From: a phage
Strand: one strand, 5' to 3'
Sequence record: PZ495249.1
DNA length: 64,000 bases
Part shown: one piece after another, positions 9,994 through 61,041 of the stretch
Layout: every line of letters begins with the position of its first letter
Numbering within the stretch: position 1 is the stretch's first letter
Translations under genes and position numbers: made by a program
Notes under the pieces: generated by a model
What the model was told of the DNA's origin: nothing
Seen by the model: the letters and a program-made list of their open reading frames with translations, nothing else
The model's database searches: none

Positions 9994-10995
9994 TTAAGCA
10001 GTAGTCAGACGAACAACCAGTTCTGGGCGAGTGTTAACTGCCAGAAGAGAGAATTCAGACTGTAGCTGAACTGTACGGTGTTCTGATACCATGAAGGTAT
10101 ACAGTTCACGAGCAACAGTGTTCGCCAGTTCAGGTGTGTCAGCAGGAGCGTAGTGCGCCTGGAACATATCTGGGATACCCATTGGCAGCACGAATGCTTC
10201 ACCAGCAGGGATGTTTCCGTGGATATCTTCGATGTAAGTTACACCGTTCCATTCGAACACTTGAACGTCCATGTTGCCACTCAGACGGTCACGCAGCAGG
10301 TTTGGAGTACCTTGGAAATACTGGTACGCCTGACGCACGAACGGAGAGTTCACCAGAGAGGCGAAGAACTCGCGAGAGCACAGAGCGATGATACGAGTAG
10401 CGGTAGAACCGTCTTGTTTCTCGTCGATGATGTACGCACGAGCTTCCTGTTCTACAGTTGCCGCAGGGGAAACAGTAGTAGAAGTGAAGTCGATTGGTAC
10501 AACTTTCTGTGTTGCGTTCCATTCTGTGTACCAGTTGTACGCAGAGTTAGCTGCACCACCTGGTCCATTGTACGCGAAACCACGTACTGCATCAGCAAAG
10601 ATAGTTTCTTTGGTTTTGGCTACGTCGCGCATGATTTGAGTCATGTAGCGGTTAACAACTTCCGCTTCGGTACGAAGACTATCGTTGATACCAGCCATAG
10701 CGAAGCTACGGAAGGATTGGATATCCTGTGCCTTAATGTTCTTATCCAGAGGGAAGAACGGAATACGGAAGACTTTAACGCTTGGTGCGTCCATAGTCAG
10801 GAAGTTACGTTCACCACCACGTTCACGGGCAGGAATCAGACCATCAGCGTTTTTCTGTTTACCGATTTCGATAGCAGTAGTCGCGTGATAGTGAGTGTCG
10901 AACAGGCCAAGACTTGCGATCAGAGTATCAGGGGTGTCCTGTAACTCGATCATTGGGCTAAAGTCTACAACCTGGTCCAGAATAATAGCTGGCAT
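9994..10995 (-). CDS. major capsid protein, 333 aa
   Basis: Size and position (after decoration/scaffold genes, before a strong terminator) typical of a major capsid gene. Confidence 0.6.
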   Translation of the reverse strand: MPAIILDQVVDFSPMIELQDTPDTLIASLGLFDTHYHATTAIEIGKQKNADGLIPARERGGERNFLTMDAPSVKVFRIPFFPLDKNIKAQDIQSFRSFAMAGINDSLRTEAEVVNRYMTQIMRDVAKTKETIFADAVRGFAYNGPGGAANSAYNWYTEWNATQKVVPIDFTSTTVSPAATVEQEARAYIIDEKQDGSTATRIIALCSREFFASLVNSPFVRQAYQYFQGTPNLLRDRLSGNMDVQVFEWNGVTYIEDIHGNIPAGEAFVLPMGIPDMFQAHYAPADTPELANTVARELYTFMVSEHRTVQLQSEFSLLAVNTRPELVVRLTTA

Positions 10996-25244: not shown

Positions 25245-26942
25245 CTATTTCACCTCAATCAGATGATTCATAACCTCTTTATCCAGACGCGCACGAATAT
25301 CGTTGAAATCTTCATCTCGACCGTTCACCTGCGGAATCAGCACATCTCCGTTACGGAAGATTGGCTGCAACAGGTTATCTTCATCGTTGATCTCGTTGAA
25401 GGAGATGTTGTCAACCTGACGGATAACACCATCGTCACCACGAACAACTTTGATGAAGCCTTTCGCAGAGCGTTTACCTGGATCAGTTTTCGGCTCTTTG
25501 CTCACCATGATTTCGTAATCGTCAATGAAGCAACCAGTAGCTTTCACAGCAATACCGAAGGTATCACGAGTGTTGAACTGGTAGGTGAAGCTACCAACAC
25601 CGAATACGATGTTTGAGGAAGCAAAACCGTTACGTTTCAGACGAGACAGAATTTCAATCTCACGCTGAACAGTGATTGAATCACCGTAAATCATGCCGAT
25701 ATGAGTATCCAGCACTTTGTAACCTTTGTTGTTCACTTCACCACCGAAGATTTCCCACAGGATCTGGATAGAACCTACCGCCTCATGGCGTGGAATCTCA
25801 CGGTCTTCGTCGATCAGCCAGTAAATATTCTCTTCTTTCAGGAACGCAACTTCTGTCAGGATATGACGAGAAGTGTTAATGAAGTGTTCACGATTCTCGA
25901 ACTCTTCAATATGATAACCAGCAACAACATGTACCGGATTACCTGAGTCAGGGCGAATAACCAGGCGACCATCACGAGCCATAATCTCTTCTTTCAGTTC
26001 GCTCAGGATGCGAGTCAGTACAGTCCAGTAATCGTAGGAGTCAGCAACGTAAGAGCAGAAACCTTTAGGAACCACTTTGGTAATAAAGTGCAGCAGGAAT
26101 TCTTTCTCTGCAAGATAACGGAGGCCATCAACATCACCTGCGAGGTGAGGGAAATGCTCTTCGAGATCTTTTACGATACGACTGATGTTTGTAGTTGCCA
26201 CAGAGTGCTCAGACGCAGGGATACTACCAGCAACGAAATCATCTTCATCAATACCGTAGTATTCGTAAACCGCGTCGATTGCCAGAATGTTATCTGTACC
26301 AGTGAACGCTGCCAGGTGAGCGATACCGCTCTTATAGCCGTCTTCAATACAAGATAAACCGCGCAAACTGAAATCGTGACACTGGAAATTAACGTGATCC
26401 ACATTGTCACAAGTTGCCAGTGCATATGACATTGCCACACGCTTGTACTGGAACGCAGCAGTTGCGTTGGTGATCGCTTTCCAGCTTTCGGTTGACATTA
26501 CGGTTTCAACGTAGTTAGTCACCCAGAAGAATTTCTCAATCGTATTGTGAATGGTATAAACCGGAACACCAATCGGAGACAGAATACCTTCTGGCAGAGC
26601 ACGAATTTCCAGAGGCAGGTAGCCTAAATCGTGCAGTTCACCCCAACATTCAGCGCTTGGCGCAGATTCACCGAGTGATTTTTTAGCCATGCGATCAAAA
26701 CGCTTAACGGCTGCTTCTCGCTTCATCTTGAAGAATTTCTTCCACATGCCTACCATTGAGTCCATCACCATACGGCGGAAGCCGATGACGATAACACCGC
26801 GAGCATTTTTATCTGCGTAATGCGCAAAGTTCTTGTCATTACGTGGAGTCAGGTTAGAGAAGATCAGTTTAGTGTTTGGATTGTACATTGGCTTGTGACC
26901 AGGTTTGTACCAATCGGCAGCAGACGGTGCATAAATTTCCAT
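25245..26942 (-). CDS. nicotinamide phosphoribosyltransferase family protein (NAMPT/NadV-like; candidate Namat of an NAD+ reconstitution pathway), 565 aa
   Basis: Length and motifs typical of NAMPT-family enzymes (GSIPASEHS, IRPDSGNP, GMIYGDSI, FGVGSFTYQ); adjacent to a PRPP-synthetase-like gene. Confidence 0.7.
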   Translation of the reverse strand: MEIYAPSAADWYKPGHKPMYNPNTKLIFSNLTPRNDKNFAHYADKNARGVIVIGFRRMVMDSMVGMWKKFFKMKREAAVKRFDRMAKKSLGESAPSAECWGELHDLGYLPLEIRALPEGILSPIGVPVYTIHNTIEKFFWVTNYVETVMSTESWKAITNATAAFQYKRVAMSYALATCDNVDHVNFQCHDFSLRGLSCIEDGYKSGIAHLAAFTGTDNILAIDAVYEYYGIDEDDFVAGSIPASEHSVATTNISRIVKDLEEHFPHLAGDVDGLRYLAEKEFLLHFITKVVPKGFCSYVADSYDYWTVLTRILSELKEEIMARDGRLVIRPDSGNPVHVVAGYHIEEFENREHFINTSRHILTEVAFLKEENIYWLIDEDREIPRHEAVGSIQILWEIFGGEVNNKGYKVLDTHIGMIYGDSITVQREIEILSRLKRNGFASSNIVFGVGSFTYQFNTRDTFGIAVKATGCFIDDYEIMVSKEPKTDPGKRSAKGFIKVVRGDDGVIRQVDNISFNEINDEDNLLQPIFRNGDVLIPQVNGRDEDFNDIRARLDKEVMNHLIEVK

Positions 26943-27011
26943 TTGTTTCTCCTTTCTCTTGTTTGTTTCGATGAGGAGAAGATTAAGTTATCCTCTCCAC
27001 AAAGTCAACAC

Positions 27012-53751: not shown

Positions 53752-53955
53752 ATGGCCTACAACTACTATCTTGTGTATGTTCACGAGAACACGAAAGAAG
53801 ACACTGGAACGAACGTCTACGCTGAGTCGGAAGACCATGCAAAGGCTATCGGGGCAGTTCTTCTTACACGCATGACAGGGGAAGAATTTACATCGGCTGA
53901 TGTTTACGCAGAAGTAGATCCTGATATGCAAGAAGATGATATCACAACCACTTGA
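53752..53955 (+). CDS. hypothetical acidic protein, 67 aa
   Basis: ORF with SD (AAGGATGATTA). Confidence 0.35.
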   Translation: MAYNYYLVYVHENTKEDTGTNVYAESEDHAKAIGAVLLTRMTGEEFTSADVYAEVDPDMQEDDITTT

Positions 53956-53980
53956 CAATAGTTTTGTGTTAGTGCATACT
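53952..53980 (+). promoter_or_regulatory. sigma70-like promoter
   Basis: TTGACA - 17 nt - CATACT upstream of the recombinase gene. Confidence 0.3.
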
Positions 53981-54005: not shown

Positions 54006-54668
54006 ATGAAATTCGTACTTTACCATCGTCTTTCCAAAAAGAAACAGCAAGGCAACCAATACGGTATTGAATCACAGGAAGTTGATATTCAACGTTTCCT
54101 GGACTCGCAAGAGAACTATACCGTGATCGGGACTTTCGCTGAATACTACTCTGGTAAAGGTGACTGGAAGCAACGTAGAGAACTGGTGAAAGCCGTGGAA
54201 CTCTGCAAAGCAACTGGTGCAACACTTGTGGTTGCAAAGGTTGACCGTTTAGGTCGTAACACTGCCTCAGTTGCAACGCTTCTCGAAATGGTGAATGTTC
54301 GTATTGCTACGATGCCCTCCGCTGAGAATATGGTGATTAATATCCTCGCCGTTCTCGCAGAAGAAGAAGCACGAGCGATCTCTGATCGTGTGAGAAAAAG
54401 TTTGAAAGTTGCCAAAGAGAAAGGTATACTCCTTGGTGCTGCAAATGAAAAATACAATCGTACAGATTACTCTAAGAGAGAGGAATCAAAGCGCTCTATG
54501 GAATTTGCCATGAGCATGAAAGATTCCCTTGTTGCTTTCCGTTCAATGAACACACCGTTCATGACAATTGCAAAGCATCTTAACGAAAGCGGTAAAACTA
54601 CTATCCGAGGCAGCAAGTTTGATGCGAAAGCTGTCCAGCGCTTATGTTCTAAGTTAGAAATCAACTGA
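54006..54668 (+). CDS. serine recombinase (resolvase/invertase family), 220 aa
   Basis: Catalytic-domain motifs YHRLSKKKQ (Ser nucleophile), LVVAKVDRLGRN, and the E-rich helix EEEARAISDRVRKSL. Confidence 0.5.
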   Translation: MKFVLYHRLSKKKQQGNQYGIESQEVDIQRFLDSQENYTVIGTFAEYYSGKGDWKQRRELVKAVELCKATGATLVVAKVDRLGRNTASVATLLEMVNVRIATMPSAENMVINILAVLAEEEARAISDRVRKSLKVAKEKGILLGAANEKYNRTDYSKREESKRSMEFAMSMKDSLVAFRSMNTPFMTIAKHLNESGKTTIRGSKFDAKAVQRLCSKLEIN

Positions 54669-55475: not shown

Positions 55476-55787
55476 ATGAGAATCACAACAGAAGGTGCTT
55501 TAGTCAACAAAGGTAGGGAGATCTTGGAAAGCCATTTCCCAGACATTGAGAAAACTCCTGGTTATCTTGGCTGGCGTATGCAAGAAACTGTGGATTTTCT
55601 CCCTCATCAAACTTCAATATTTCTTCTCGTCAAAGTAGAAGGTGACACGCCATACAAAGATGTAGCGGAGCACATCGAAAGAGTAGAAGACGTGGCTTAC
55701 GCCGAATTTGCCTACCTGGATATCGCACCAGAATTAGAAGGGAAGGTGAATATATTTATTCTAATGGATTTTGAGGAGGAGACATGA
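55476..55787 (+). CDS. hypothetical protein, 103 aa
   Basis: SD GAGGAGGAGGG-ATG. Confidence 0.4.
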   Translation: MRITTEGALVNKGREILESHFPDIEKTPGYLGWRMQETVDFLPHQTSIFLLVKVEGDTPYKDVAEHIERVEDVAYAEFAYLDIAPELEGKVNIFILMDFEEET

Positions 55788-56521
55788 TCTTATATAAACA
55801 CATCGATCTGAATGATGATCAAGAGTTGTTCATTGTTGGTGATTTGCATGGTTCATATGACCTGTACACCAAGGGTGCTCACATACTTGGTATTCGTGAA
55901 GAAGATGTGGTGATTTCCCTTGGTGATTTAACAGATCGTGGGGAACAGAACTTGCGTTGTGTACTGGAGTTCACCAGAAAGAAAAACCACTATGCTATTC
56001 GTGGTAATCACGAGGACATGATGATCCGTGGTATGCTGGAAGGTAGCAGAGACTACTACCAGTGCTGGTATCAAAATGGTGGCTGGACTGTCTGGAACGA
56101 AATGGGTGAAGAAGGTGTAACTCTTCTTGCCACAATGGTAGAAGAACTGCCTGTGGTGTTGACAGCCTCACATCGTGGGAAAACATATGGCTTCATTCAT
56201 GGTGGATATCCTTCTGTTTTTGAACACTTACCACTTACCGATATTCCAAAACTTAATCTTGAAGGTGAGCGCCTCCAGGCTTTTGCTGAAAGTTTAATGT
56301 GGGATCGCGATATGGTAACTTGTGCTCAGGAAGGTCTAAGTCTGCCGAAAGTTCTTGGTGTGGATTATGTCTTTCATGGACATTCTTACGTACCGGAGCC
56401 GTTGATCAACGCCAACCGTGTTTATATGGACACTGGCGGTGTATTTAACAACAATCTCACCTTTGCATACTTTGATGTGGATGGTGAACTTAAATTTTAT
56501 TCAACTCTTGAGGAGGATTGA
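55784..56521 (+). CDS. PPP-family serine/threonine protein phosphatase (lambda-phosphatase-like), 245 aa
   Basis: Metallophosphatase motifs GDLHG, GDLTDRG, GNHE. Confidence 0.6.
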   Translation: MILYKHIDLNDDQELFIVGDLHGSYDLYTKGAHILGIREEDVVISLGDLTDRGEQNLRCVLEFTRKKNHYAIRGNHEDMMIRGMLEGSRDYYQCWYQNGGWTVWNEMGEEGVTLLATMVEELPVVLTASHRGKTYGFIHGGYPSVFEHLPLTDIPKLNLEGERLQAFAESLMWDRDMVTCAQEGLSLPKVLGVDYVFHGHSYVPEPLINANRVYMDTGGVFNNNLTFAYFDVDGELKFYSTLEED

Positions 56522-56787
56522 TGTATAAAATTACAATCAAGCGAACTGTTGGAGATATCGTTACAGAAACGACTATTGAGACAGATGACCTTGAATTAGC
56601 CAAAGAAATTTTGGTGTCAGAAGAGATTATCAAAGTTGAAACTGATGTTCCGAATGAGAGTATTGATCCTGGTATGGAATCTCTGAAAGAACTATGGAGA
56701 AAACATCTGGACGATATATGGAAAAACCCGCGCACAGGCGTTCCATATGAAACAGGAACTCCCTGGCCTTTCACAGTAACTTGTTAA
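56518..56787 (+). CDS. hypothetical protein, 89 aa
   Basis: ATGA overlap with the upstream gene. Confidence 0.4.
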   Translation: MMYKITIKRTVGDIVTETTIETDDLELAKEILVSEEIIKVETDVPNESIDPGMESLKELWRKHLDDIWKNPRTGVPYETGTPWPFTVTC

Positions 56788-56796
56788 GGTGACGAT

Positions 56797-57369
56797 ATGA
56801 GCGACTTATTTTATACGGGCGTTGGAAGTCGTGATATCACAGATGAAGAATGGGATGTAATGGTAGCTGTTGCCAAATGGTTGGCACAGTGGTGTAAACT
56901 TCGATCAGGTAAAGCCGGAGGTTCGGACTCTGCATTTGAATATGGGGTGTCCTTATCGGACTTCCCTGACAACAAGGAGATCTATATTCCTTGGCCTAAA
57001 TTTGAAGGGAATGAAATTCCAGGTGAAAAGATTTCTCTTGATCGTCCAGACAGCGTAAACTATGCTCTGACTTTGCAGTATGCGAAAGAGATTCATCCGG
57101 CTTGGGATAAACTTTCTCAGGGTGCTAAGAAATTACATCAGAGAAACATACACCAAGTGTTGGGACGAGATCTGGAAAACCCTGCACCATCCATATTCTT
57201 GCTGGCGTGTTCAGACGAGGATAAGAACGGAGATGTGAAAGGCGGTACTCGAACTGCTTGGCTGCTGGCTAAGAAGTTTAATGTTCCGTGTTTCAATATT
57301 CGAGGAAAAACGAAAAGAGAGATCTTCGAATTTATTCAACCTATCTTGAAGGAGAAACTTAATGCTTGA
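56797..57369 (+). CDS. DprA/Smf-like (SLOG-superfamily) Rossmann-fold protein, 190 aa
   Basis: YTGVGSRDIT ... LRSGKAGGSDSAFEYG parallels the DprA core (GSR...SGxAxGxD). Confidence 0.35.
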   Translation: MSDLFYTGVGSRDITDEEWDVMVAVAKWLAQWCKLRSGKAGGSDSAFEYGVSLSDFPDNKEIYIPWPKFEGNEIPGEKISLDRPDSVNYALTLQYAKEIHPAWDKLSQGAKKLHQRNIHQVLGRDLENPAPSIFLLACSDEDKNGDVKGGTRTAWLLAKKFNVPCFNIRGKTKREIFEFIQPILKEKLNA

Positions 57370-57898
57370 TGCATATCAAAGGGGCGGTGCTCGCCCCAAT
57401 ATCAGTGAGATGTATAGTCCGGTTGTCGATTTAACACCAATGATCACTAAACGTGTTATGGATACTATCGAGAAAGGTACATGGGTGGTGAGTGATAAGA
57501 TTGAGTTTCGTTATCACAAGACGATTGTTGCTGTTAGTGACAATGGCGCGGCAATGAATGTTCCATTCTATCCCTTGGATAAGACTCTCACTCAAGAAGA
57601 GATTGAGGAAATTAACCTCCACGTCCTGGGTTATGTCCCATTTGAGAATACGGTCATCCAGACCTACACCACTCTAATGGTAAATGAGATCCTACGCGCA
57701 ATTACCCGTGTCTTGGATGAGGGTGTAAGAAAAATCATCGTACATTTCTGTCCCGCTGATACACCGGAATATGCTAACACTGTGGCTTATCCGCTGTATG
57801 GTTTTATTGCTAATGGTGTTCTTCAAATGGAAACTTCTTTCCTGATTGAAGAAATAAAAAATGACTTTTCTGTTGACATAGATCAAGGTGGTTGGTAA
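57362..57898 (+). CDS. hypothetical protein, 178 aa
   Basis: ORF overlapping the end of the SLOG-like gene. Confidence 0.4.
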   Translation: MLDAYQRGGARPNISEMYSPVVDLTPMITKRVMDTIEKGTWVVSDKIEFRYHKTIVAVSDNGAAMNVPFYPLDKTLTQEEIEEINLHVLGYVPFENTVIQTYTTLMVNEILRAITRVLDEGVRKIIVHFCPADTPEYANTVAYPLYGFIANGVLQMETSFLIEEIKNDFSVDIDQGGW

Positions 57899-57936
57899 AC
57901 TCTTCGGAAATTGTCAATAACAACTGGAGGTAAGAG

Positions 57937-58095
57937 ATGAAAACGACAGAACAACTGATCGCGCAGAAACTGGAAGAAGCAATTGTGATGGCTCGTGCTG
58001 AGGGCTTAGGTCAAAACTATTTCAACATCACCCTCGAAGATGGTGAAAATGTTGAAGTGAACGTTCAATGGCGATCTTCTTCCTATGACTGCTAA
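57937..58095 (+). CDS. small protein, 52 aa, member of the C-terminal WxSSSxxC family
   Basis: SD GGAGGTAAGAG-ATG; ends ...NVQWRSSSYDC-stop; below the supplied track cutoff. Confidence 0.4.
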   Translation: MKTTEQLIAQKLEEAIVMARAEGLGQNYFNITLEDGENVEVNVQWRSSSYDC

Positions 58096-58378
58096 TGTGG
58101 GATTAGAACACTCCTTCCTTGCCTCTTGGCAAGGATGGGATGAAGTGGGAAGTGCAGGTGATCTTTGCTTCTATGGTTGCACTTTAGCGAACCACCTGAA
58201 AGGGATGGAGCCAGAGGGAACCAAGGAGATTATTACAATCTTCCTGATGAGTGAGTCAACTGTGCAATTTGACTTCTACGGTGAGAGCGCGTTTTCTGAC
58301 CCTCGTGATGCTTACTTGGGAAGCAAAGCATTTAAAATTAAAGCAGTATTAGAAGAGGAGATTCCTTGCGATGAGTAA
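58085..58378 (+). CDS. hypothetical protein, 97 aa
   Basis: Track ORF; start uncertain; no tail motif. Confidence 0.3.
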   Translation: MTANVGLEHSFLASWQGWDEVGSAGDLCFYGCTLANHLKGMEPEGTKEIITIFLMSESTVQFDFYGESAFSDPRDAYLGSKAFKIKAVLEEEIPCDE

Positions 58379-58790
58379 ATATGTAACTGGTCAAATTTTT
58401 GAAGACAACTGGGATGACGAAGTGGGGCGTATTGTATACGCTAACGGCATCTGGTCTAACGATGAAGACCGCGCTGCCTTTGAAGATTCGTATGGCGGAA
58501 TGCCGGACGATATGCCAGAGGTGATCCTGTACGAATTCATGTACCATGATGAATTTGTCGAGGGCGAAGCAGCGATCAAAGATTTTGTTCGTGAGCATGG
58601 CCTTATCGACGTTGCAGAGCGTGAGTGTAAAGATCGAGAACGCCAAGTGATTGTTGATACCCTGAATGCAATGGGCGTAGATACCGCCGATCTGATTGTT
58701 TCAGAAGGTCGTGTTTACATGGGGAGCGACGAGTGTGAAGCCTATATTCAAGGCAGTCATGCTTGGTGTTCAAGTAGCATGATTTGCTAA
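58371..58790 (+). CDS. acidic protein, 139 aa, WxSSSxxC family
   Basis: Ends ...GSHAWCSSSMIC-stop. Confidence 0.45.
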   Translation: MSKYVTGQIFEDNWDDEVGRIVYANGIWSNDEDRAAFEDSYGGMPDDMPEVILYEFMYHDEFVEGEAAIKDFVREHGLIDVAERECKDRERQVIVDTLNAMGVDTADLIVSEGRVYMGSDECEAYIQGSHAWCSSSMIC

Positions 58791-58799
58791 GGAGAGTGG

Positions 58800-59234
58800 A
58801 TGTATAATAACACTGATAATCTCGAAGTCGGAAAAGACTTCTACGATCTGAATACTGGTGAGTATGTCTTTACCGTTATTTATGATGGTGACGACGACAC
58901 CCGCATCCTGGTAGAAGGTATCCCAACAAAGGTGCAGAGTCAGTATAGTGATTACATGTATGATATCGTGGCATACAATAAGGACACTATGCACCCTTTA
59001 GACGAAGATGATGTGAACGATATTTGTTACAACAATTTGATTGTCACAAAGGAATATCTGGACGCCATCAATGCCACGAAACAAGTATTGATTAATATCT
59101 GGGAACAATCTGGTATTCAAGAACCATTCGTGTATGAAGATGGGAATTTCTATGTTGGTAAAGAACAAGTTCTTTCAGCCCACATTAATTCCGGCTACGA
59201 ACACGGTTGGATTTCGAGTAGTATCTGCTGGTGA
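58800..59234 (+). CDS. acidic protein, 144 aa, WxSSSxxC family
   Basis: Ends ...YEHGWISSSICW-stop; SD AAGGAGAGTGG-ATG. Confidence 0.45.
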   Translation: MYNNTDNLEVGKDFYDLNTGEYVFTVIYDGDDDTRILVEGIPTKVQSQYSDYMYDIVAYNKDTMHPLDEDDVNDICYNNLIVTKEYLDAINATKQVLINIWEQSGIQEPFVYEDGNFYVGKEQVLSAHINSGYEHGWISSSICW

Positions 59235-59458
59235 GTGTTGGAACTGTAGCGGTATGGATAAAGTCTGAATCTGGTGATGATTATCTGTACTGCTTTGAGA
59301 ACCAATCCTTAGAGCAAATTTCCAACAATCTGACAGAGAACCTGGAAATGTTTTGCCCTATTTGTGATTGGAAAACTACCGGAGACAATAAAGACTTCGT
59401 TAGTGATGTTAAGATGTTTATGTCGGATTTATATGATAAATCATGGGAGAGAGAATGA
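59231..59458 (+). CDS. hypothetical protein, 75 aa
   Basis: ATGA overlap with the upstream gene; no tail motif. Confidence 0.4.
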   Translation: MSVGTVAVWIKSESGDDYLYCFENQSLEQISNNLTENLEMFCPICDWKTTGDNKDFVSDVKMFMSDLYDKSWERE

Positions 59459-59649
59459 GTGAATTTAAAACAGTAAGTGAAGCAGTGGCAGCGGCAAATG
59501 CTGCCCTCGCTGAGGCAGAACGCCTATCTCTGGAAACAGGTGAAGGGTTTGGTTTCCATCCGTGTTATGGTATGGGCGGTTACTTCGATCCAGAAGAAGA
59601 AAACGAGTACACTGGGGATCACTGGTTCCCATCTTCACTGGGTTGCTAA
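59455..59649 (+). CDS. small protein, 64 aa, WxSSSxxC family
   Basis: Start at ATG with SD GGGAGAGAGA; ends ...GDHWFPSSLGC-stop. Confidence 0.45.
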   Translation: MSEFKTVSEAVAAANAALAEAERLSLETGEGFGFHPCYGMGGYFDPEEENEYTGDHWFPSSLGC

Positions 59650-60005
59650 TGCAGCCATTTGAGTGTAAAGTGTTTATTGCAGGGCATGAAGTTATGCCCT
59701 TTGATGAAAACGTGAGTATTGAGATAAGGAGAACACCTGTGGACAAGAAAGAAATTGAAAACCTGATCCGTGAAAAAACTGCTGCTGCCGAAGCCTACAT
59801 GCAGTCTGTGAAAGACGAAGTGGCTGAACTGGCAGATAAAGCTGGCGTTCAGGCTTATTGGGGCGAATATGGTAGCGGTGAAACCTACTACCCTGTTGGT
59901 ACAGATGTAAATGCCGAATACATCGGTTGGGAAGCGAGTGAGTATGCAGATGAGAACGGTATCCTGACTCAAGGTATGTGGATCTCTTCAAGCTCTATGT
60001 GCTAA
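59649..60005 (+). CDS. acidic protein, 118 aa, WxSSSxxC family
   Basis: ATG overlaps the upstream stop (TAATG); ends ...TQGMWISSSSMC-stop. Confidence 0.45.
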   Translation: MQPFECKVFIAGHEVMPFDENVSIEIRRTPVDKKEIENLIREKTAAAEAYMQSVKDEVAELADKAGVQAYWGEYGSGETYYPVGTDVNAEYIGWEASEYADENGILTQGMWISSSSMC

Positions 60006-60018
60006 GAGTGTAACTATT

Positions 60019-60045
60019 AACCCGCTTCGGCGGGTTTTTTATTGC
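60019..60045 (+). terminator. intrinsic terminator
   Basis: CCCGC-TTCG-GCGGG hairpin followed by TTTTTTATT. Confidence 0.5.
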
Positions 60046-60052
60046 CTGAGTA

Positions 60053-60081
60053 TTGACACGTTAATCAAAACCTGGTAAACT
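60053..60081 (+). promoter_or_regulatory. sigma70-like promoter
   Basis: TTGACA - 17 nt - TAAACT directly after the terminator. Confidence 0.4.
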
Positions 60082-60111: not shown

Positions 60112-61041
60112 ATGATTATGGTTGGTAGCCGTGGTTTAGAGATTCAATTAGAACGGGAGGCTAAGAAATTTTATCGCCCTTGTCTTGATCTTGACTTTCT
60201 TTGCACAGAGAAGGAGTGGAGTATAGCATTCATCCGTTACACCCACGAAGAAGGCGTTGAGCTTGTGGAACGTACTGGCAACAAAGGTCATGTCAAACTG
60301 ACAGATGGGACACATATCGAGTTTGATATTGCTCAACCTGGCGATAGCACAGATATTCTGATCCAATATTGCAAGGCAAACCCACAGAGTATGTTCCTTA
60401 ACAACGGTGATTTCGTGGCTCCGGTGGATGTTCTGTATCTGCTGAAAATGAGTCATCGTTATAAGAAGAATAGCCCTCATTTCTTCAAGACCATGAATGA
60501 TATCCATTTCATGCGTTCTCTTGGGGCTAAGATCCCAGTGGAATTAGAAGAAGTGTTTAAGCTGCGTGAGAAAGAGACTTACGATTACTCACACCCAAAT
60601 CTGGATGTGAAGAGCAAAGACTTCTTCAAAGGTGATGAAGTGCCGTATGTTTACGATCACGACACGATTCATGAAGCAGTGGCGGTGTTGGGTGTACCTG
60701 CATACAAATCTTACATGAAAGATGACAGCGAAGTGATGACTTCCAAAGAGAAGTTCTTTGAACAGGAAAATCATATCCGTCTTCTCGGTGTGTACGAAGA
60801 GAGCTGCGTACTGGCACTGGAACGTTCGCAGATTCCGTTCAATTTCGAGGTTCCGGCTCGTCAGAGTTTTGTTATGGCACTTAGTAAAGTTTGCACATCG
60901 ATCACTTCCGGCTGGTTCCGTGAGTACGCCTGGGAGAACTTCGGGGTTGTCATGAAGTTCTATGAAAGCATGGGTGAAACTGATTACATTGAGCGATTCA
61001 AAGCTAATCAACACCTGGTTAAACCATTCGAGGGGGAATAA
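60112..61041 (+). CDS. hypothetical protein, 309 aa
   Basis: SD GAGAGGAGAAACATT-ATG; no motif recognised. Confidence 0.4.
   Translation: MIMVGSRGLEIQLEREAKKFYRPCLDLDFLCTEKEWSIAFIRYTHEEGVELVERTGNKGHVKLTDGTHIEFDIAQPGDSTDILIQYCKANPQSMFLNNGDFVAPVDVLYLLKMSHRYKKNSPHFFKTMNDIHFMRSLGAKIPVELEEVFKLREKETYDYSHPNLDVKSKDFFKGDEVPYVYDHDTIHEAVAVLGVPAYKSYMKDDSEVMTSKEKFFEQENHIRLLGVYEESCVLALERSQIPFNFEVPARQSFVMALSKVCTSITSGWFREYAWENFGVVMKFYESMGETDYIERFKANQHLVKPFEGE

Follow-up and report, generated by a model that had tools for sequence, protein, structure and literature searches.

The 64,000-nucleotide stretch of phage DNA analyzed here (sequence record PZ495249.1; hereafter the window, in whose numbering all coordinates are given) belongs to a phi92-like myovirus of the subfamily Stephanstirmvirinae. 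At 56797..57369 of the plus strand it encodes a 190-residue protein, which an initial annotation, made from the letters alone, had described as a stand-alone DprA-like Rossmann protein of the SLOG superfamily. The protein represents a distinct, DprA-like viral SLOG family and is not a DprA. Because the gene fusions and genomic neighborhoods of this family point to an ADP-ribose-linked substrate and a role in counter-defense, we tentatively favor the possibility that the SLOG pocket acts on ADP-ribose- or NAD-linked nucleotides to counter host defense, a proposal that in our view is somewhat more apt to fail than to hold.

The gene starts with ATG, is preceded by a Shine-Dalgarno-like AAGGTGA (56787..56793, plus strand), and its product matches the hidden Markov model (HMM) of PHROG 768 with E 1.4e-58 (residues 2-184 to profile positions 2-182 of 191). 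The label of PHROG 768 is 'DprA-like DNA recombination-mediator protein', and many phage records holding a homolog carry this name, e.g., phi92 gp047, phAPEC8 gp185, PAK_P5 gp148, and RB49p164. The protein itself has no sequence match in Pfam (E<=1), NCBIfam, PADLOC, or PDB (phmmer). With this match and 255 database homologs the gene goes well past what chance would give, and tblastn detected homologs in 1,439 of 50,697 phage records, from phages of Klebsiella, Pseudomonas (PAK_P type), Escherichia, Aeromonas, Vibrio, and Acinetobacter, with T4-like and jumbo phages among the carriers. An exhaustive profile search yielded 6,004 clusters at 50% identity, 1,986 of them with E<=1e-30 and most consisting of stand-alone proteins of 170-200 residues, which makes the family one of the more common among the accessory genes that medium and large phages carry. 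The gene is an ordinary member of this very large, catalogued family and has nothing that goes beyond it.

The AlphaFold model (predicted local distance difference test score, pLDDT, 96.3) covers the protein end to end as a single domain with the three-layer alpha/beta architecture and central parallel sheet of solved SLOG structures. Its top Foldseek matches are SLOG proteins only, with H. pylori DprA (HpDprA) first (E 5e-6), followed by ShosA, ThsA, the molybdenum cofactor (Moco) carrier protein, YpsA, and LOG. Fold prediction had been named as a check of the SLOG/DprA-like assignment, and it bears out both the fold and the claim that no other DprA domain is attached. In an alignment of 45 homologs with 38-86% identity to the query, 19 positions are invariant (G10, S11, R12, R36, S37, G38, A40, G42, D44, H114, R116, N117, Q120, G123, S132, G149, G150, T151, and N167), mostly in or beside the loops after strands 1, 2, and 4 and a helix with an Arg-Asn (RN) motif. 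The core on which the assignment had been based, GSR...SGxAxGxD, is among them in full, and G42-x-D44 is the GxD/E signature described for the SLOG superfamily (PMC6459960).

The conserved loops, all encoded on the plus strand, could be matched to those of other SLOG proteins. G10-S11-R12 (56824..56832), within the loop that follows strand 1, aligns with the GSR of SpDprA, RpDprA, HpDprA, and E. coli Smf; this loop contacts phosphate or nucleotide in SLOG proteins. The strand-2 and GxD motif R36-S37-G38-K-A40-G-G42-S-D44 (56902..56928) aligns with 'SGLARGID' of DprA and 'RHGDADGVD' of Seurat gp80, a SLOG protein of the YAcAr family considered below, and the aromatic loop after strand 3, Y63-I-P65-W66-P-K-F69 (56983..57003; Y63, P65, W66, and F69 at least 90% conserved), aligns with 'PAPW' of gp80. 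A family-specific insert of ~45 residues with a conserved IHPAW (roughly 65-110) separates strand 3 from the RN helix L113-H114-Q-R116-N117-I-H-Q120-V-L-G123 (57133..57165), which aligns with R89-N90 of gp80. Finally, the Gly-rich loop after strand 4, G149-G150-T151-R-T153-A154 (57241..57258; T153 and A154 at least 90% conserved), is the counterpart of PGGxGTxxE in LOG and SGSLxTA in DprA, aligning with 'RSGSLVTA' of DprA at low stringency and with 'PGGAGT' of gp80; it has no acidic residue, and D44 is the sole invariant acidic residue of the family. SLOG sites hold a single nucleotide, AMP in LOG and one flipped thymidine of single-stranded DNA (ssDNA) in HpDprA. In the window protein the usual SLOG pocket for one nucleotide is formed by the loops after strands 1-3 (GSR, SGxAxGxD, and IPW), the helix with LHxRNxxQ, and the strand-4 loop with GGT.

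Similarity to DprA is restricted to the N-terminal part of this fold. Among the family members checked individually, the best score against PF02481 is 26.3 bits versus a gathering threshold of 29.6, and the matches span only profile positions ~45-112 of 212, i.e., strand 1 to helix 2 within the N-terminal ~45 residues. Profile-profile comparison (hhalign) with 27 bacterial DprA domains gave E 7e-6 over the GSR and SGxAxGxD motifs. When the family was compared by hhalign with E. coli Smf and with the 27-sequence DprA alignment in default, low-mact, and global modes and by C-terminal halves, the alignment was confident over the N-terminal 48 columns only, with no significant similarity between the C-terminal halves of the two families. 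Two ssDNA-binding signatures have been described for DprA, G-S/T/A-R and F/L/Y-x-x-R-N/D (Wang et al., PMC3950713). In DprA the second lies on the helix that precedes the penultimate core strand. The first corresponds to the invariant G10-S11-R12, which aligns with the DprA GSR; for the second, L113-H-Q-R116-N117 with invariant Arg and Asn fits the pattern, but none of the hhalign comparisons put it opposite the DprA motif, and MAFFT did not bring the two RN motifs together either.

The domain context differs as well. The window protein lacks SAM and winged-helix domains, whereas the retrieved bacterial DprA proteins possess PF17782 and/or PF25317 beside PF02481; such accessory domains (SAM or a DML1-like winged helix) are common in DprA, not universal. 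Bacterial DprA/Smf is the RecA loader of natural transformation, and no recombination or DNA-binding domain was seen among the fusions of the surveyed family representatives, whose nameable partners are NADAR and DUF4326 rather than DNA-related domains. The median net charge of the family is 0, and thus it is not a family of basic DNA-coating proteins. In the literature search we found neither a biochemical study of PHROG 768 proteins nor an experiment in support of the name "recombination mediator"; this database label is a similarity-based annotation and weakly founded.

The fusion survey covered the top 150 family representatives and one further protein from the first search (P0085). Extra sequence occurs in about 20 of the 150, and all additional domains that can be named with Pfam are either NADAR (P0259, P0261, P0289, and P0346) or DUF4326 (P0085, P0361, P0362, and P0396). 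Two of these proteins, P0259 and P0261, are polyproteins of ~1,480 residues that combine a window-type SLOG, a YAcAr SLOG, an LDcluster4 SLOG, and NADAR. Further fused domains, at the N-terminus (~125 residues; P0358 and P0383) or the C-terminus (~140-170 residues; P0341 and P0363), have no match in Pfam or PDB, and one of the two shows the motif 'VFVFG(A/S)N...HGAG(A/G)A'.

The genomic context of the SLOG gene was inspected in roughly 13 neighborhoods, nine of them from diverse metagenomic phages. In two of the nine, which belong to distant phages, DUF4326 is encoded 0.7-0.9 kb upstream of the SLOG gene, and in one a phosphoribosyl pyrophosphate (PRPP) synthetase, a nicotinamide phosphoribosyltransferase (NAMPT), and a faint Macro match precede it. 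Recurrent fusion to NADAR or DUF4326 and adjacency to DUF4326 are seen at the level of the family and not inside the window. Three of the nine contexts (L018, L019, and L020) have an upstream ATP-grasp ligase resembling glutathionylspermidine synthase (GSP-synthetase-like, PF03738), which adjoins the SLOG gene or is one or two small genes away; Klebsiella phage FKP3 has a 'COOH-NH2 ligase', and a functional link between the PF03738 ligase and its SLOG neighbor is possible.

FKP3, the closest annotated relative, encodes a stand-alone DUF4326 protein, a Sir2 protein (its gene corresponds to a position just past the end of the window), and a PRPP synthetase gene that adjoins one for NAMPT. A NAMPT homolog 84% identical to the FKP3 gene is present in the window at 25245-26987 on the minus strand. 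Judged by sequence, NAMPT, PRPP synthetase, and Sir2 together look like a toolkit for NAD+ salvage or for countering NAD+ depletion. The DUF4326 gene of FKP3 (PP895363.1, 24992-25366) is annotated as 'NrdA-like ribonucleotide reductase', and its product is a DUF4326 protein (PF14216, 68 bits) with tblastn matches in 1,163 phage records; T4-like phages call the gene nrdA.1. The reductase label, which several further phage records share with FKP3, is apparently a misannotation that has spread between entries.

NADAR enzymes strip guanine bases of DNA of their ADP-ribose, and one of the phage T4 proteins, gp30.3/AdfN, has been demonstrated to act as an anti-DarTG1 factor (PMC11543638, PMC11825919, PMC11125620). 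In a survey of viral SLOG domains, Iyer et al. (2022; PMC9503650) described viral stand-alone SLOG proteins fused to Macro, NADAR, and DUF4326 and predicted that they act on ADP-ribose-derived signals. From the fold, the pocket residues, the size of the family, its fusions, and its neighborhoods we infer a ligand, an action as enzyme or only as binder, and a counter-defense role, as follows. The ligand of the 190-residue protein would be a nucleotide with an ADP-ribose moiety, which it would bind and possibly cleave; this could be a free signal or an ADP-ribosylated base in phage ssDNA. The protein would work beside NADAR- and DUF4326-type enzymes, its fusion partners in other viruses, and the phage would thereby use the pocket to oppose ADP-ribose- or NAD-based host immunity. 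The missing acidic residue of the Gly-rich loop leans toward binding or toward chemistry other than that of LOG.

A phenotype is available for a neighboring SLOG family. In a knock-out screen of phage PhiDruSM1, deletion of ORF83, identified by HHpred as "Smf/DprA", lowered plating on hosts with Avs type III, and deletion of the ligase gene ORF55 likewise sensitized the phage to this system (bioRxiv 10.1101/2024.04.14.589459). According to a later preprint, ORF83 is predicted by AlphaFold 3 to bind AMP via R89, N90, T112, and D114, lacks the DprA residues for dimerization and RecA contact, and has DUF4326-fused homologs in amoeba viruses. Seurat gp80 (130 residues) possesses R, N, T, and D at exactly these positions, 89, 90, 112, and 114, which we take as evidence that it is the probable ORF83 ortholog, and it is a YAcAr SLOG (PF10686, 65.2 bits with a threshold of 28.2). 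The MAFFT alignment brings gp80 and the window protein together motif for motif (GGR/GSR, RHGDADGVD/RSGKAGGSD, PW, RN, and GGxGT/GGT). Both are stand-alone phage SLOG proteins, and in consensus form their common motifs read G-G/S-R-D, R-x-G-x-A-x-G-x-D, P-W, R-N, and GG(x)GT. Nevertheless, the two families are separate: hhalign gives E 0.003 only, a single one of the 45 members has a weak YAcAr match (E 0.068), and the window protein itself has no PF10686 match, exceeds gp80 by 60 residues, and after GGT has no acidic residue (T153 versus D114 of ORF83). In the polyproteins P0259 and P0261 the two SLOG types stand side by side.

Several observations weigh against a role in ADP-ribose- or NAD-based counter-defense. 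Neither NADAR nor DUF4326 nor Macro was detected in the 64-kb window, where phmmer and small HMMs for NADAR, DUF4326, and the two unnamed fused domains gave no match. Fusions that can be named are few, with 7 among the 150 representatives listed, and most of the ~13 neighborhoods inspected have no ADP-ribose-related gene. Presence of NAD and ADP-ribose genes in the same genome is weak evidence, as large phages hold many accessory genes, and we know of no experimentally established activity of DUF4326. The ORF83 phenotype, described in a preprint, belongs to another SLOG family (YAcAr) and could equally be explained by DNA repair. Hydrolysis of the LOG type is argued against by the replacement of the acidic residue of LOG, and of D114 in ORF83, by T153. 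Finally, DprA is the nearest named family both by sequence and in Foldseek, and weak PF02481 matches occur in 37 of the 45 homologs.

The last point leads to the alternative that we consider unlikely but by no means negligible, namely DprA-like handling of ssDNA. Here the domain would bind phage ssDNA through its pocket. While the phage replicates by way of recombination or repairs DNA damage inflicted by a defense, the domain would either protect this ssDNA or assist in loading a recombinase, whether host RecA or one encoded by the phage. Besides the closeness to DprA, both published ssDNA motifs (GSR and L-x-x-R-N) are present as invariant patterns, the second outside the reach of the alignment, and the isolated DprA domain suffices for ssDNA binding in H. 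pylori (PMC3950713). A phage DprA/Smf has earlier been proposed as an additional ssDNA binder by the same group as Iyer et al. (PMC7824862). In three phage groups (two of the nine metagenomic contexts and PAK_P5) a DNA ligase is encoded 2-4 kb upstream of SLOG, and the system to which loss of either ligase or ORF83 sensitizes PhiDruSM1, Avs type III, belongs to a family that commonly has DNA-nuclease effectors. Even the NADAR fusions can be accommodated, since NADAR substrates include ADP-ribosylated ssDNA and a fused ssDNA binder would be sensible. The nameable fusion partners of the family, with no DNA-binding or recombination domain among them, point less to this explanation than to the favored one.

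An improbable alternative is that the protein is a LOG-like nucleotide phosphoribohydrolase, cutting AMP or some other free nucleotide at its N-glycosidic bond and thereby reshaping nucleotide pools or destroying a nucleotide needed for defense. The single-nucleotide pocket of LOG itself holds AMP, and AMP binding has been predicted for ORF83; the latter is an AlphaFold 3 prediction only, and for a different family. Instead of PGGxGTxxE the window protein has K-G149-G150-T151-R-T153-A-W with no conserved acidic residue, and no family member has a Pfam Lysine_decarbox/LOG match.

A further alternative involves the gene that follows, and both genes are present at the positions given in the initial annotation. 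The ATG of the second lies within the last codons of the SLOG gene (57362..57898, plus strand; 178 residues), so that the two genes share an 8-nucleotide start/stop overlap, ATGCTTGA (57362..57369, plus strand), and a Shine-Dalgarno-like AGGAG is found at 57350..57354 on the same strand. Overlaps of 8-11 nucleotides also occur in FKP3, phAPEC8, and phiWec186, and translational coupling of the two genes is possible. The product is acidic (isoelectric point 4.6), belongs to PHROG 8569 (E 1.5e-23), has no Pfam match, and is encoded in 133 phage records, all but a handful of which are named as phi92/phAPEC8-like or related phages.

A profile built from 19 homologs of the 178-residue protein matches the phi92 major capsid protein (PDB 21uy_N, Phi92_gp124) with E 2.1e-9 and the PhiTE capsid protein with E 0.0027. 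The similarity extends to the major capsid protein of the window (9994..10995, minus strand; 333 residues; Phage_cap_E, PF03864, E 9.5e-40), with 6.7e-6 in blastp, 2.2e-11 in hmmsearch, and 3.2e-6 in hhalign. Two collinear segments are involved: residues 63-122 ("PFYPLDK" and a long helix) correspond to capsid residues 74-129, and residues 127-165 ("HFCPADT...YGF...LQMET") to capsid residues 280-320. In phi92 gp124 and the window capsid protein the shared features are 'IPFFPLDK' with the next helix and the C-terminal strands 'H-x-x-PADT...LY.F'. Weaker matches, none of them significant by itself, hint that two more elements, "RGGxR" and the N-terminal segment of the capsid protein, are kept as well, in swapped order. 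The AlphaFold model (pLDDT 79.9) gave weak local Foldseek matches to capsid proteins over only ~46-50 columns. Compared with a lambda-E-type capsid protein (PF03864), the 178-residue protein is about half as long, has by position nothing corresponding to capsid residues 1-52 and ~140-280, and matches Phage_cap_E in segments and not over the full length. These comparisons identify it as a shortened, diverged paralog of the phage's own major capsid protein, a derivative rather than a capsid protein.

One could combine both genes and several of the ideas above in a single picture, to which we give little credence. The SLOG pocket, as a DprA-type site for a single base, would recognize ADP-ribosylated bases on phage ssDNA, i.e., DarT-type damage, and either remove the adduct or pass it on to enzymes of the NADAR or DUF4326 type; such a protein would found a new class of factors against ADP-ribosylation of DNA. 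Independently of this, the capsid-derived mini-protein would act as a decoy or modulator for host systems sensing the major capsid protein.

The chances are slim that the two proteins form a functional module of their own, e.g., a sensor with a capsid-like decoy or an assembly factor. The start/stop overlap is conserved, the genes are adjacent in every relative inspected, and the number of phage records with the 178-residue protein (133) equals that with a SLOG homolog at 60% identity or above. On the other hand, adjacency is limited to the Stephanstirmvirinae, in which the whole block of ~8 genes is syntenic, and no fusion of the two proteins was seen among the surveyed representatives. Outside the subfamily the SLOG gene is followed by unrelated genes, and this holds even for a distant phi92-like contig whose synteny is similar in other respects; no similarity to the 178-residue protein was found downstream of the SLOG genes of PAK_P5, a Vequintavirinae-like phage, and two metagenomic phages. 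A family-wide two-gene system was therefore rejected, the 178-residue gene not being next to SLOG outside the subfamily among the loci checked. The overlapping capsid derivative is confined to this phage lineage and, under the favored proposal of an ADP-ribose- or NAD-directed pocket, probably has no share in the mechanism.

Hardly any weight can be given to mimicry of ShosA, in which the phage copy would stand in for this unstable DprA-like antitoxin after shut-off of host expression and keep the ShosT toxin of ShosTA silent, given that ShosA requires a SAM domain architecture, dimerization, and binding of ssDNA and RecA, that the phage protein lacks both a SAM domain and a PADLOC match and resembles ShosA no more than it does ordinary DprA, and that ~6,000 clusters across phages of many hosts are far too broad a distribution for a ShosTA-specific mimic.

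The order of genes around the SLOG gene is well conserved. Klebsiella phage KP13-26 is the sole match at the DNA level (72% identity); the best matches at the protein level are to FKP3 (Justusliebigvirus, Stephanstirmvirinae; 85% identity), with further ones to relatives of phi92 and phAPEC8. In FKP3, phAPEC8, phiWec186, and PsgM04F the genes follow in the order HisRS-like (histidyl-tRNA synthetase-like), hypothetical, phosphatase, hypothetical, SLOG, 178-residue open reading frame (ORF), small ORFs, and DUF7275. The initial annotation had correctly placed the gene between a phosphatase and a family of small tagged proteins. The Metallophos/NinI-like phosphatase is encoded upstream on the plus strand at 55784-56521 (PF00149, E 7.6e-15) and is separated from the SLOG gene by an ORF of 89 residues (56518-56787).

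The tagged family starts at 57937, and its members end in a common tail of the type W-x-S-S-S-x-x-C. It comprises five small ORFs on the plus strand (57937-58095, 58371-58790, 58800-59234, 59443-59649, and 59562-60005), with the tails WRSSSYDC, WCSSSMIC, WISSSICW, WFPSSLGC, and WISSSSMC and no Pfam match. Such a tail could serve as a tag for modification, targeting, or degradation.

The 178-residue gene had also been called a co-transcribed partner. Co-transcription is plausible, as a predicted arrangement of ~8 co-oriented genes and not of this pair alone, because the genes form one co-oriented run with promoter-like sites and no earlier terminator-like hairpin on the plus strand; the notion of a partner, restricted as it is to the Stephanstirmvirinae and to a capsid paralog, does not stand in the same way. 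A consensus scan found promoter-like sites on the plus strand at 53952..53980 (TTGACA-17-CATACT), upstream of the run that includes both genes, at 57873..57901 (TTGACA-17-TAAACT, TG-extended), at the end of the 178-residue gene and before the small tagged ORFs, and at 60053..60081, with the same architecture as the second; as the total number of such sites is no higher than the shuffled expectation, they are only suggestive. All three intergenic sites have a perfect TTGACA -35 box and a 17-nucleotide spacer, and two of the three share an identical TG-extended TAAACT -10 hexamer. They may be phage promoters dependent on host sigma70 that divide the region into transcription units. In the same scan no terminator-like site was found on the plus strand between 53725 and 60018, and the first intrinsic-terminator-like hairpin downstream of the pair is at 60019..60036 (plus strand); the run of tagged ORFs starts past the promoter-like site at 57873 and stops at this hairpin.

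Other genes of the region, all on the plus strand, deserve a brief mention. A serine recombinase/DNA invertase is encoded at 54006-54668 (PF00239, E 1.3e-20) in what is otherwise a virulent-looking phi92-like myovirus, and the gene is kept in FKP3 and one distant relative. A protein of 190 residues at 54893-55465 matches PHROG 4806 'histidyl tRNA synthetase' and is far too short for such an enzyme. This protein and a DUF7277+DUF7275 protein of 309 residues at 60112-61041 are both kept across the subfamily.

The two functions suggested initially for the SLOG protein, ssDNA handling and binding of a nucleotide second messenger, are already in the literature. What is added here is the weak basis of the "recombination mediator" label, the ties of the family through its fusions to NADAR and DUF4326, and the capsid origin of the lineage-specific neighbor. 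If the link to ADP-ribose or NAD is true, the standard annotation is misleading and a common counter-defense factor has been overlooked.

Among known systems, the LOG/YgdH cytokinin-type phosphoribohydrolases and the Moco carrier protein share the fold and differ in the catalytic PGGxGTxxE motif, which the window family has not kept. In ThsA, the Thoeris effector, a SLOG domain senses gcADPR, whereas the window protein stands alone, with no fused or adjacent SIR2, transmembrane, or Macro effector. The phage signal sponges Tad1, Tad2, and Acb2 have folds unrelated to SLOG. In ShosTA a protein with SAM and DprA domains is encoded beside the gene of the ShosT phosphoribosyltransferase; the window protein has no SAM domain, and its neighbors are a phosphatase, the 89-residue ORF, and the capsid-derived ORF. 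In the network of Iyer et al. (PMC9503650) most viral SLOG proteins are put in a 'YpsA-like clade', whose activity is a prediction. The window family resembles this network in being a stand-alone SLOG of medium and large phages, and its fusions to NADAR and DUF4326 were recovered independently here.

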